This document shows positions 37,652 through 44,493 of a stretch of DNA of 64,000 bases, one piece after another; within the stretch, counting starts at the first letter, position 1, and the number at the start of each line of letters is the position of its first letter. The notes under the pieces are model-generated. The model ran no database searches. It was not told where the DNA came from and saw nothing but the letters and a program-made list of their open reading frames with translations. The stretch is taken from assembly GCA_031547945.1 (NCBI GenBank), contig JAVBRN010000002.1:15736-79735 (forward strand). Direction: 5' to 3'. Both the position numbers and the translations under genes were made by a program. The DNA is from Oscillospiraceae bacterium. Its GTDB lineage: Bacteria; Bacillota; Clostridia; Oscillospirales; Ruminococcaceae.

Positions 37652-38016
37652 GCATGGTCTTTTTTGGGAAATACGCAGGAGGAACGGCGCTAATATGGCC
37701 ACAAGGTAAAGGATAAAGCGCTGAAAAAAAGCGAAACTGAAAAAGGTGAGGCAGGGTGTTAACGCCACAAACAATAAAATTCCGCACAAAAAGCAAAAAT
37801 TTTTTTCATCGCTATTGTCATTTAATAATAAAAGTCTTTTATCAGTATTAAATATAATAAAACAGTCGAAAGATGAGGAGAGTGGTGCAATCTATGTGAT
37901 CGGCTTGTTATTGATTTTGATATGATATTAGAAATAGCGACGACCAAAATTGACCAAATTCGACAAAAGCAAACAAAACTCAACACTTGTACGTGTTAAC
38001 CGAAAAAGGAAACGTC

Positions 38017-38544
38017 ATGAAGCAGATACTTGCTCTCGCGGCTACCATGATGTTGCTGTTTGTGTTTGTGCAGTCCAACCAATCTGCCGGGTTTTCCGCA
38101 AATACAGTTCGGTCAGGTATAAAAGCGCAAGATGATACAGCGACAATTTTTCTGCTGCCAAACGGCGCGGCAAGATATGAAACCGGCACCGGATGCCAAG
38201 CTCGAAAAATGACGGCTACTTCCGAATCCGACCTGTTTTCTGAGGACAATCTTAACGAAGAGAGACAGTATCGGGAACAGCAGAGAACTGAGCGGGACAA
38301 ACGACTAAAAGATGCGTTTGATAATTATGGTGGAGCGACAGAGGATCGCAGTGATGCGTTACAGAACAGAGTCGCCGAGCTTTTTGCAACGCCTTCGACG
38401 TATTACGGAAATAGCCGTGTTGCGGAACAAGCGAACACGACTGCAACCGTGTTATTGGTCGTCCTATTCTTAACGCTTGCGGCGGCGAGTTACCTTGTGA
38501 CGCTGTCTGTCCGTAAGGCAATGCAGAAGAGGCAGGAAAAGTGA
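38017..38544 (+). CDS. EssA-like T7SSb membrane protein (tentative)
   Basis: ORF 37987..38544; start MKQILALAATMMLLFVFV at 38017 after AAAAAGGAAAC. It has an N-terminal signal/TM segment and a C-terminal TM segment (VLLVVLFLTLAAASYLVTL) followed by a basic tail. It sits directly before esaB-essB-essC, as essA does in Staphylococcus. The call rests on position and topology only. Confidence 0.4.
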   Translation: MKQILALAATMMLLFVFVQSNQSAGFSANTVRSGIKAQDDTATIFLLPNGAARYETGTGCQARKMTATSESDLFSEDNLNEERQYREQQRTERDKRLKDAFDNYGGATEDRSDALQNRVAELFATPSTYYGNSRVAEQANTTATVLLVVLFLTLAAASYLVTLSVRKAMQKRQEK

Positions 38545-38771
38545 TGTACATCACAGTGACAATCACGACAACGGAACAGCAATACCACATTCAAATTGAC
38601 AACAAACAGCGTGTTGCTGCAGGCATTGAAATTTTGGCAGCCACCGGGAAGACGACCGCGAAGCCAGTGGACTATTACCGATCGAAAATGCAAAAACGTA
38701 TTGTCAGTGCCTATAATACTTTTGAGCAAGAACACATCCAAAGCGGCGATGAGCTTACATTGCTGGTTTAA
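38544..38771 (+). CDS. esaB: EsaB/YukD-like ubiquitin-fold T7SS protein
   Basis: 75 aa. The pattern YITVTI...IQID...I...GDELTLLV resembles YukD/EsaB. The start overlaps the upstream stop (GTGATG). Confidence 0.65.
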   Translation: MYITVTITTTEQQYHIQIDNKQRVAAGIEILAATGKTTAKPVDYYRSKMQKRIVSAYNTFEQEHIQSGDELTLLV

Positions 38772-38785
38772 AACCACAAAGGGAA

Positions 38786-43000: not shown

Positions 43001-44425
43001 ATCTTTGGTGCGTCCGGATTTGGCAAGTCGACCACCGCTATGACGATTGCGCTCTCGCTTGCAATGAAAAACGCGCCGGATCTGCTGCAATTTTATATTA
43101 TGGATTTTGGCAATGCCTCGCTGATTCCGTTAAAAGGCTTGCCGCAAACGGCGGATTACCTAAGTTTTGATGACACGGACAAGCATGACAAACTGTATAA
43201 GCTGCTTCTGAGTGAGGTTGCCACACGCAAAAAGTTGTTTGCACGTGAAAACGCAATCAACTTTAACATGTATAATACCGTTGCAAAGCAAAAACTGCCG
43301 GTGATTTTGCTTGTTATCGACAACTACGACGTCATCAAAGAGCTTGGTTATGAAACAGAGGAAGTTCTCACAAAGATTACGCGCGACGGCGTCGGTCTTG
43401 GTATCTATACGGTGATTGCGGCGACGCGCCAGTCGGCTGTGCGCTATGCTGTGCTCAACAACTTTAAGGATAAGATTGTACATTTCATGCATGAATCCAG
43501 CGATATTTACGCGCTTGTCGGCCGCAGCGATTATACGCTGCCGGAAATTCGCGGGCGCGCTATGGTTCGCATGGAGGATGTCAGTTTGATGCAGGTCTAT
43601 CTGCCGCTTGCATTTACCGACGAGATGCAATATACCGCCGGGCTGCGCAACACGATTGATGCCATTGCGCGCAACTGTTCGGTCAGCGGCGCCAACGGAA
43701 TTCCGGTGTTGCCGGATATCCTGACCATTCCCGATTTGCTGCGCGCCGCAGGGCCGGACAAGCGCAAGCGAATTGTACTTGGCCTGGATACCGAGTCGGT
43801 GCGGCCGCAGTTCTTTGACAGTTCCGCGCAGGTACAACTGATTGTGGGAACTGCGCAGACCGGCAAGAGCAATCTGCTGAAGCTTATTTTGGGACAGCTG
43901 GCTGGTGAGACCGTATTCATCGCCGACTCCAAAACCTGCGATTTGCAGAATGCGGCGGAGCGGCCGAACACGGTCTATATGAGCAACGCTGCCCAGGCCA
44001 GTGTTTTTGTTGCGCGTTTGAAACAGGTGATTGAAGAACGTAAAGCGTTGTTGGAGCAGCAGGGCGGCCGGCGGCGGCCCAAAGACTTTTATGCTGCATT
44101 GCCGCGCGTTTCTATCTTAATTGACGACGCGGACTATTTTGTGGAATGCTGTGCCGGTTGTGCGAAAGAAATGGAAGCGCTATTGCCCGAGGCGCTTGTG
44201 GTTGGGGTATATATCTATTCCACGACTGCGCCAAGCAAGATGCGCGGATACGACCCGGTGACCAAGCTCTTGAAGGATACCACGCACGGGGTTCTCTTGG
44301 GGAATCCAAGTGACCAGTCGATCTTTATTGTACCGTCCATACGTGGCTATAAACCGCAAGTGGATATGGGCATGATCGCACGCATGGGCCAGCAGGTCAT
44401 GATCAAAATTCCGCAGGTGGAATAG
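40028..44425 (+). CDS. essC: type VII secretion FtsK/SpoIIIE-family ATPase EssC
   Basis: 1465 aa. N-terminal FHA-like region, two TM segments ([19 protein letters not shown]...), then three P-loop domains. Long near-identical blocks to staphylococcal EssC are present ([98 protein letters not shown]). Confidence 0.95.
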   Translation: [1465 protein letters not shown]

Positions 44426-44456
44426 CCGCAGCGACAACATAGGAATCCGATTCAAA

Positions 44457-44493
44457 CCGAAGAAGACCGCGGCAGCGCTGCGGTCTTCTTCAG
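44457..44493 (+). terminator. hairpin after essC (weak terminator)
   Basis: GAAGAAGACCGC ggcagcgc TGCGGTCTTCTTC with no clean U-tract. It abuts repeat copy R6. Confidence 0.45.

Follow-up and report, generated by a model that had tools for sequence, protein, structure and literature searches.

The gene order of the ess locus in Staphylococcus aureus is esxA-esaA-essA-esaB-essB-essC, and in Bacillus subtilis the order is yukE-yukD-yukC-yukB-yueB-yueC. EssC of these type VIIb secretion systems (T7SSb) is set apart from actinobacterial EccC by two N-terminal FHA domains, and EsaA/YueB is a polytopic membrane protein that spans the wall and has a long extracellular domain. To our knowledge, the outer architecture of the type VIIb machine is still unsolved, and the requirement for EsaA bears on this architecture. 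In both S. aureus and B. subtilis, EsaA/YueB is reported to be essential (PMC11217815). T7SS variants without EsaA have also been published (PMC11217815); the T7SSc-j variants, which are without EssA, EssB and EsaA and have other accessory proteins instead (Garrett et al. 2024, PMC11217815), offer a precedent for a T7SS that works without EsaA. A T7SSc-j identity for this locus was rejected, since the presence of EssB and an EssA-like gene identifies it as T7SSb.

A total of 64,000 nucleotides of DNA (the window) from a metagenome-assembled genome (MAG) with 69.6% completeness was used for the analysis, and the locus is positioned deep inside a 522-kb contig. Our analysis confirmed an intact, tight operon between metA and pyrI encoding EssA-like, EsaB/YukD, EssB/YukC and EssC proteins. 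A T7SSb core in the staphylococcal order essA-esaB-essB-essC had been proposed in a preliminary description made from the sequence, and the open reading frames are as given there, with support from protein families and folds. The locus shares with canonical T7SSb a tandem-FHA, three-P-loop EssC, an EssB/YukC pseudokinase, an EsaB/YukD protein of ubiquitin fold and a putative EssA-type small membrane protein, and with Staphylococcus the order of these genes; it differs from the canonical model systems in its low sequence identity. Overall, our analysis suggests that the locus is probably the operon for the membrane machine of a genuine type VIIb system that is dispersed rather than incomplete.

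The first gene of the operon (38017..38544, plus strand) encodes a small membrane protein of 175 aa, assigned as EssA-like from its position in the operon, its architecture and a profile of positional analogues. The protein has an N-terminal signal peptide or transmembrane (TM) segment, a D-L-F-S-E motif, a charged middle and a C-terminal TM segment followed by basic residues. It can be aligned with positional analogues from the loci of relatives, and the homology is weak: a profile built from 21 such analogues gives a modest score of 20.3 bits, which exceeds 1000 of 1000 shuffles. No direct match to Pfam EssA (PF10661) was found for this protein, a jackhmmer search with the open reading frame against those of relatives gave no matches, and PF10661 is matched by one of the 22 sequences in the EssA-like alignment (6.5e-7). 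The ATG of the second gene overlaps the TGA of the first by one nucleotide (TGATG). This gene (38544..38771, plus strand) encodes the ubiquitin-like EsaB/YukD protein of 75 aa, which matches NF052661 YukD over its full length (E 2e-5), finds 44 proteins by jackhmmer at the same locus position in relatives and, as a profile, matches YukD in the PDB (E 0.003). The AF2 model of EsaB (pLDDT 90.7) has 2bps_A and 9qks_A as best Foldseek matches (TM 0.85), and on this model the protein is predicted to adopt the YukD fold.

The third gene (38786..40000, plus strand; GTG at 38792 is the probable start, giving 38786/38792-40000, and the record has 402 aa) encodes the EssB/YukC pseudokinase, a membrane protein with a single TM segment and an acidic Gln/Glu/Asp tail. 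It matches PF10140 (E 2.7e-74; 250.7 bits, cut-off 27.4) and, in the PDB, EssB 2ynq (8e-23) and YukC 6z0f, while the stricter TIGR03926 equivalog is matched with 206 bits, under the cut-off of 229.75. The acidic tail had been described as unusual; comparison with relatives showed that it is common in the clade, since Asp+Glu makes up 30% or more of the final 45 residues in 13 of 63 EssB relatives. The fourth gene (40028..44425, plus strand) encodes the EssC motor ATPase of 1465 aa, with a tandem FHA N-terminus, a TM region and three P-loop domains. EssC matches TIGR03928 with 1463 bits (cut-off 778) and contains a TM segment and Walker A motifs at residues 654, 994 and 1274. No significant match to an FHA domain was found in EssC by sequence search alone; the AF2 model of residues 1-200 (pLDDT 87.8) has 9qks_H (YukB), 5fwh (EssC FHA) and 1wv3 as best Foldseek matches (E 1e-8 to 5e-8), and the modelled N-terminus has the fold of the tandem FHA domain of EssC/YukB. 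Typing of the EssC C-terminal variant region against S. aureus essC1-4 was rejected as meaningless at such divergence. Inactivating mutations, raised in the preliminary description, were not seen: the four genes contain no internal stop, and the coding sequence of about 6.4 kb is without frameshift.

Analysis of the flanks gave the arrangement described earlier. On the left, metA (36614..37567, plus strand), a core-metabolism gene for homoserine O-acyltransferase (PF04204, E 2.5e-136), is followed by its terminator hairpin (37621..37651, plus strand; inverted repeat I9), a perfect 14-bp stem between an A-run and a T-run. The end of metA and the essA-like gene are separated by 449 non-coding nucleotides, of which 37652..38016 (plus strand) form the AT-rich leader/promoter region of the T7SS operon; GC is 0.386 over 37500-37999. 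A promoter scan of the plus strand upstream of the essA-like gene found no sigma-70 consensus promoter, and neither this intergenic region nor that after essC has an Rfam match. On the right, a GC-rich hairpin with 15-nt arms and a 3-nt loop (44459..44491, plus strand; inverted repeat I11) lies directly 3' of essC and is likely the transcript end, though without the classic T-run. It is followed by a MITE-like intergenic repeat copy of about 280 nt (about 44493..44775, no strand assigned), recognised from its similarity to other copies in the genome and without an Rfam match, and by pyrI (44941..45354, minus strand; PF01948/PF02748) and pyrB (45351-46265; PF02729/PF00185), both convergent with the core operon. 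The repeat (R6) cannot be read as an islet boundary, since the genome contains 96 copies (100 nt or longer, 70-80% identity) on 13 of the 14 contigs. It is a lineage-specific, genome-wide, MITE-like element that is not specific to this locus, and it is absent from the contigs of the nearest relatives (L106, G404).

As described earlier, no EsxA/WXG100, EsaA, toxin or immunity gene occurs in cis. No gene for WXG100, LXG, EsaA or DUF4176 was found within the 64-kb window, and a tblastn search of the two flanks of the core found no esxA or esaA remnant (best E 0.035). Unlike canonical T7SSb, the core thus has neither esxA nor esaA/yueB beside it. The upstream esxA-esaA pair that the preliminary description expected reflects the layout of Staphylococcus. 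Among the closest relatives of the window EssC, several have esaA directly downstream of essC (L012, L013 and L107, and also L017, L039, L057, L076 and L078); in this EssC clade esaA is usually downstream of essC and not upstream as in Staphylococcus.

The nearest proteins belong to Clostridia-type T7SSb loci from termite-gut, rumen and gut MAGs and isolates, with identities of 50-64% for EssC and 35-42% for EssB. They include those of Defluviitaleaceae Lab288P1bin77, Oscillospiraceae Emb289 bins, Mogibacterium pumilum and JGI contig Ga0466696_005491. These loci have in common with the window an EssA-like protein architecture that includes the D-L-F motif, as well as acidic tails on EssB. Most of them carry esxA directly upstream of essA, and EsaA is encoded upstream in L018, L020 and L021 or, as noted, directly downstream of essC; here neither gene is present in cis. 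Among 27 well-flanked loci of relatives, six are without EsaA within 8-10 kb and one is without both EsaA and WXG100 in that range, so that a layout with neither near the core is rare.

The question raised earlier, whether substrates are encoded elsewhere, can be answered: an EsxA-like gene and three toxin modules were found in trans. The genome-wide search that had been suggested found WXG100 (contig C5) and LXG (contig C2) proteins, and found neither EsaA nor DUF4176 in the 69.6%-complete MAG. A WXG100-family protein (PF06013, 45.3 bits, over the cut-off) is encoded at C5:22431-22715 and aligns over its full length with EsxA encoded upstream of essA in relatives. Its W-x-G turn reads F-D-A; it is the only EsxA-type protein in the assembly, in which a canonical EsxA was not observed. 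An unlinked EsxA-type protein with FDA replacing WXG distinguishes this system from canonical T7SSb. WKG or WEG is carried by the WXG100-like partner proteins of the toxin modules, each of which has small WXG/Lap-like helical partner genes upstream. The module at C5:78492-81429 comprises genes for three small helical proteins, one of them with WKG, for a 494-aa toxin with an Endonuclease_NS_2 match (2e-20) and for a YezG-like immunity protein (1e-37). At C1:59337-62939, partner proteins are encoded together with a 596-aa protein whose N-terminal 375 residues have homologues directly downstream of essC in Lachnospiraceae loci. The third site, C2:265255-267366, encodes an LXG protein (PF04740). 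All three modules are intact, one with an identified immunity gene, and GC3 is low for all of them. Because the lineage-specific repeat is common to C1, C5 and C2, these contigs belong to one genome. LXG/nuclease toxin cargo with YezG/EsaG-type immunity is a likeness to canonical T7SSb, and the scattering of cargo modules over three sites is a difference from it. The substrates are dispersed in trans, not missing.

Comparison of T7SSb distribution revealed EssB over the cut-off in 4 of 401 family genomes and 2 of 301 order genomes, and EssC is polyphyletic within the family. The window EssC is sister to an EssC from a metagenome contig (64% identity), in a clade different from that of EssC of the same-family genome G041. 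The closest EssB in a set of 5.8 billion proteins has 42% identity, so that no second sample of the species exists, and an exact-protein match for MetA is not on record in public assemblies. The lineage belongs to under-sampled Clostridia in which T7SSb is rare. The AT-richness earlier attributed to the first 2 kb or so is real but modest: among 734 long open reading frames, GC3 of the essA-like gene, esaB and essB ranks in the 5th-7th percentile and that of essC in the 49th. An inserted islet had been proposed on this basis. The T7SSb core was probably acquired horizontally, as it is rare in the family and order, its EssC is polyphyletic and its first three genes have low GC3; no tRNA or integrase marking an island was found at the locus, nor att-like flanking repeats, the direct repeats being only 15 nt and at chance level. 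An empty metA-pyrI junction, which the preliminary description suggested seeking in relatives, could not be demonstrated. None of the metA neighbours, not even metY, is conserved in the 11 family or order relatives examined, and a same-genus genome gave no metA match; the comparison is uninformative because synteny around metA is unconserved in these relatives.

Searches of the assembled 1.57 Mb with TIGR03929, the A1 profile and a 7-sequence HMM (unfiltered, --max, six frames) gave no homologue of EsaA or YhgE/Pip. FtsK, too, went undetected in the assembly, and EsaA absence cannot be concluded because the MAG is only 69.6% complete; in comparison with canonical T7SSb the difference is that EsaA is not found in the assembled 70%. 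All three of the other T7SSb-positive family genomes, each with a completeness of 94% or more, gave a strong, full-length EsaA match, in no case adjoining essC. In G041/G543 (23% GC, 1.3 Mb) and G404, T7SSb is likewise a rare accessory trait. EsaA is unlinked to the core in two of the three genomes, lying between housekeeping genes in G041, and in G404 it follows 7.7 kb downstream, with an LXG toxin and an immunity array in between. Unlike the window, these genomes keep esxA upstream of essA and demonstrably possess EsaA. T7SS-negative relatives gave weak, partial Pip-like matches only (4 of 40), and EsaA matches thus track T7SSb presence in the family (Fisher p 8e-5; 0.003 counting weak matches). 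Since family relatives keep EsaA unlinked or several kb off, EsaA most likely exists at a distance from the core, within the roughly 30% of the genome missing from the assembly.

A different reading is that EsaA/YueB is truly lost and that this is a naturally EsaA-less T7SSb, secreting with EssA, EsaB, EssB and EssC only; a thin-walled or different envelope might do without EsaA, or an unrelated protein might take its place. The negative profile searches, the lack of an esaA remnant after essC, the intact state of the other core genes and cargo, the six relatives' loci without a nearby EsaA and the published EsaA-less variants are all consistent with such a loss. We regard it as unlikely, given the completeness of the MAG, the co-occurrence of EsaA with T7SSb in the family and the reported essentiality of EsaA/YueB in both model species. 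Equally doubtful is the associated proposal of a minimal EssA-EsaB-EssB-EssC T7SSb without EsaA, maybe with an FDA-type EsxA, that yet exports nuclease and LXG toxins. The absence in cis of the two genes that usually end the locus in this clade, the loss of the WXG motif in the EsxA-like gene and the MITE-like repeat abutting the 3' end of essC would also fit decay, in which deletion or rearrangement removed the two ends of an originally complete esxA-essA-esaB-essB-essC-(cargo)-esaA locus and left a non-functional core that has yet to accumulate stops. This is improbable in view of the uninterrupted reading frames, the coupled start and stop codons, the three intact Walker A motifs and the intact toxin modules. 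In addition, the amelioration of essC GC3 to the genome mean points to a long residence under selection. An assembly artefact, with the repeat copy after essC falsely joining the pyr cluster and hiding a downstream cargo-esaA segment, is very improbable: a multi-copy repeat does lie exactly at the 3' junction of essC, which in relatives is succeeded by esaA or cargo, but the copies are too diverged to mislead an assembler, the junction is far from the contig ends, essC has its own hairpin ahead of the repeat, and an EsaA-bearing contig is absent from the bin.

Under the favoured reading of a dispersed type VIIb system, the essA-like gene, esaB, essB and essC would be translationally coupled in one operon. 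By analogy with established T7SSb biology, EssC hexamers held in the membrane by EssB, EsaB and EssA would use ATP to power the export of helical-hairpin partner-toxin complexes, with the EsxA-type WXG100 protein and at least three polymorphic-toxin modules supplied from elsewhere on the chromosome. The function would likely be contact-dependent killing of neighbouring bacteria, the immunity proteins shielding the producer. We infer expression, secretion activity and an antibacterial role for the system.

As a T7SSb the system is fairly ordinary; its layout is unusual and scattered, and it mainly widens the range and the set of layouts known for T7SSb. An intact core is placed in a family of gut or environmental Clostridia in which only about 1% of species have T7SSb, with the cargo and the EsxA-type gene all scattered around the chromosome, and the genes next to a T7SS core are hence no safe ground for calling the system 'incomplete'. 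If the absence of EsaA is true, this organism would be a natural experiment on whether type VIIb export depends on the wall-spanning subunit, and, were it still to export its toxins, EsaA would not be universally required.

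Analysis of the interval between metA (36614-37567, PF04204) and the convergent pyrI/pyrB genes (44941-46265) revealed four ORFs on one strand, confirming the compact T7SSb core (essA-like, esaB, essB, essC) that the preliminary description placed there; its interpretation held in part only. The source genome is a metagenome-assembled genome (MAG) of 14 contigs (1.57 Mb, 69.6% complete, about 51% GC), and the window covers positions 15736-79735 of its contig C2. EssB (start at 38786 or 38792, end at 40000) matched PF10140 (E 2.7e-74) and the PDB structures of EssB (2ynq, 8e-23) and YukC (6z0f). 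EssC (40028-44425) scored 1463 bits with TIGR03928, and its reading frame, free of internal stops, carries Walker A motifs at 654, 994 and 1274. The predicted fold of EssC residues 1-200 (pLDDT 87.8) had its best matches in 9qks_H (YukB of the B. subtilis T7b core unit), 5fwh (EssC FHA domain of Geobacillus) and 1wv3 (S. aureus). ORF2 (38544-38771), whose ATG overlaps the stop of ORF1 as TGATG, showed a weak yet full-length match to the NCBIfam YukD model, has 44 homologues that occupy the corresponding place in the loci of relatives, and gave a model (pLDDT 90.7) whose top structural matches were YukD 2bps_A and 9qks_A (TM 0.85); together, family match, co-located homologues and model identify ORF2 as EsaB/YukD.

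ORF1 (38017-38544, ATG start just after AAAGGAAA) had no direct EssA Pfam match. Its architecture is that of the genes lying just before esaB in relatives: they have in common a signal peptide, the motif D-L-F-S/T-E, a charged central region and, at the C-terminus, a transmembrane segment with basic residues after it. ORF1 is alignable with these positional analogues and scored 20.3 bits against their profile, exceeding all 1000 of 1000 shuffled controls, and one of the 22 sequences in the analogue alignment matched PF10661 EssA (6.5e-7). On these grounds ORF1 is assigned as EssA-like with moderate confidence. The acidic tail of EssB, thought unusual at first, is of a kind frequent in the same clade.

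The flanks were as previously described, with AT-rich non-coding DNA after metA and a hairpin, a repeat and convergent pyr genes after essC. A terminator hairpin with a perfect 14-bp stem (37621-37651) follows metA, and beyond it the DNA is AT-rich (GC 0.386) and non-coding for about 365 nt. Neither an Rfam family nor a consensus promoter was found in the leader before ORF1. The essC-distal side of the second hairpin (44459-44491) adjoins a repeat of about 280 nt, which recurs in 96 copies of 100 nt or more (70-80% identity) on 13 of the 14 contigs. The repeat carries no information specific to the T7SSb locus; it serves as a marker that contigs C1, C2 and C5 belong to one organism.

Substrates are encoded elsewhere in the genome. 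None lies beside the core, and remnants of esxA or esaA were undetectable in either flank; the reported absence of WXG100 and substrate genes in cis holds. A PF06013 (WXG100) search found an orphan 94-aa gene (C5:22431-22715, 45 bits) and weaker members at C1:59733, C5:78812 and C5:79071. The 94-aa protein aligns over its whole length with the EsxA encoded upstream of essA in relatives, and its W-x-G turn reads F-D-A. The gene is solitary; a copy of the MITE-like repeat lies some 1 kb upstream of it (C5:21188-21432). A toxin module (C5:78492-81429) comprises three small helical proteins, one bearing a WKG motif, a 494-aa protein whose C-terminal domain is Endonuclease_NS_2 (2e-20) and a YezG-like immunity protein (1e-37), a toxin/immunity pair of the YeeF-YezG/EsaD-EsaG type. 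Among the genes checked, the one for immunity is lowest in GC3 (0.393, 1st percentile). A second cargo module (C1:59337-63949) contains helical proteins of 126, 106 and 126 aa and a 596-aa protein (all within C1:59337-62939), followed by genes for a zinc-ribbon-like protein of 197 aa and a membrane-anchored one of 281 aa. Several Lachnospiraceae loci carry, directly after essC, homologues of the small proteins and of the N-terminal 375 residues of the 596-aa protein; the C-terminal (toxin) domain of the 596-aa protein had no Pfam match. An LXG-domain protein is encoded at C2:265255-267366, and DUF4176 was absent from the genome.

EsaA was not found in the assembly, 69.6% complete, by TIGR03929, by the A1 profile for EsaA or by an HMM that we built from seven EsaA proteins and applied without filters to all six frames. 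A phmmer search with EssC yielded no further FtsK/SpoIIIE-family protein, not even the cell-division FtsK, a concrete sign that the assembly is incomplete. Comparison of relatives revealed EsaA upstream of essC in most Lachnospiraceae and directly downstream in several of the closest EssC relatives (loci L012, L013, L017, L039, L078, L107; 60-110 bits with TIGR03929, in each case more than with the YhgE/Pip model). Among 27 loci with at least 8 kb on each side of essC, EsaA was upstream in 18, downstream in three and absent from the flanks in six; WXG100 was present in 25, and both were missing in only one. All three other T7SSb genomes of the same GTDB family (at least 94% complete) encode a strongly matching, full-length EsaA at a distance from the core. 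In G041 and G543 its gene stands by itself between housekeeping genes of a different contig; in G404, whose essC is interrupted by a contig break, it is found 7.7 kb downstream of essC, past the genes for an LXG toxin and for five immunity-like proteins. Among 40 T7SS-negative relatives, the only matches were four weak and partial ones of Pip type (Fisher p 8e-5 for strong matches, 0.003 with weak ones included). Since EsaA is present in 3/3 T7SSb genomes against weak matches in T7SS-negative relatives, it accompanies T7SSb in this family even where the two are not linked. Most economically, the esaA of this organism would be in the 30% of the genome that was not assembled; a T7SSb without EsaA is here more likely an effect of incomplete assembly, and a true absence from the organism is improbable.

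Elsewhere, a 2230-aa EssC frame (L027:2542-9234, Thomasclavelia MAG JBKTWO010000006.1) includes EsaA profile matches, either as an EssC-EsaA fusion or through a missed stop or frameshift. The esaA start lies 7 nt inside the essC end in L035 and 0 nt after it in L085. Beside the unlinked esaA region of G041, at the end of its contig C17 (L094:9209-9557), a perfect tandem repeat encodes PPVAPPVYGFLDGC units.

PF10140 exceeded the cut-off in two of 301 genomes sampled across the order, four of 401 across the family and none of the 40 nearest relatives. The closest EssB among 5.8 billion proteins shares 42% identity, and the closest EssC among GTDB representatives 50-57% (termite-gut and other Clostridia MAGs, and G404). 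In a FastTree phylogeny of 64 EssC sequences, the sister is a JGI metagenome contig (64% identity); the clade also holds Anaerovoracaceae, Oscillospiraceae and Defluviitaleaceae, and EssC of G041, though a genome of the same family, groups with a different clade. GC3 of essA, esaB, essB and all cargo modules is among the lowest 1-8% of long ORFs; that of essC is average. Taken together, rare distribution, distant homologues, EssC phylogeny and low GC3 favour a horizontal, possibly old, acquisition of the core. Mobility hallmarks are missing, with no tRNA or flanking direct repeats at the borders and no integrase gene seen among the flanking ORFs, and no empty-site comparator exists because the gene order around metA is not conserved in any relative examined. 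Support for a horizontal origin is distributional and phylogenetic, not structural.

On the sister contig (L106:2-1982, Ga0466696_005491, JGI metagenome 3300042596), which holds the nearest EssC relative, two tandem EssB-type genes precede essC; the contig end truncates the first of them, which likewise bears an acidic tail, and the gene after essC is DUF4176, not EsaA. Two EssC nested among Clostridia T7SSb (L039, L046) belong to MAGs that are assigned by label to Actinomycetota (Solirubrobacterales, GC 0.32, and Promicromonosporaceae); these are probably mis-binned contigs, not transfers to Actinomycetota.

By analogy with known systems, EssC would act as ATPase motor and substrate receptor, with EssB, EsaB and EssA as scaffold. 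WXG/Lap-like small proteins would pair with large toxins into export-competent helical bundles, and nuclease and other toxins may act on competing bacteria while immunity proteins shield the producer. With a T7SSb without EsaA as its sole potentially surprising element, the locus is a T7SSb of scattered gene layout in a lineage where T7SSb is rare.
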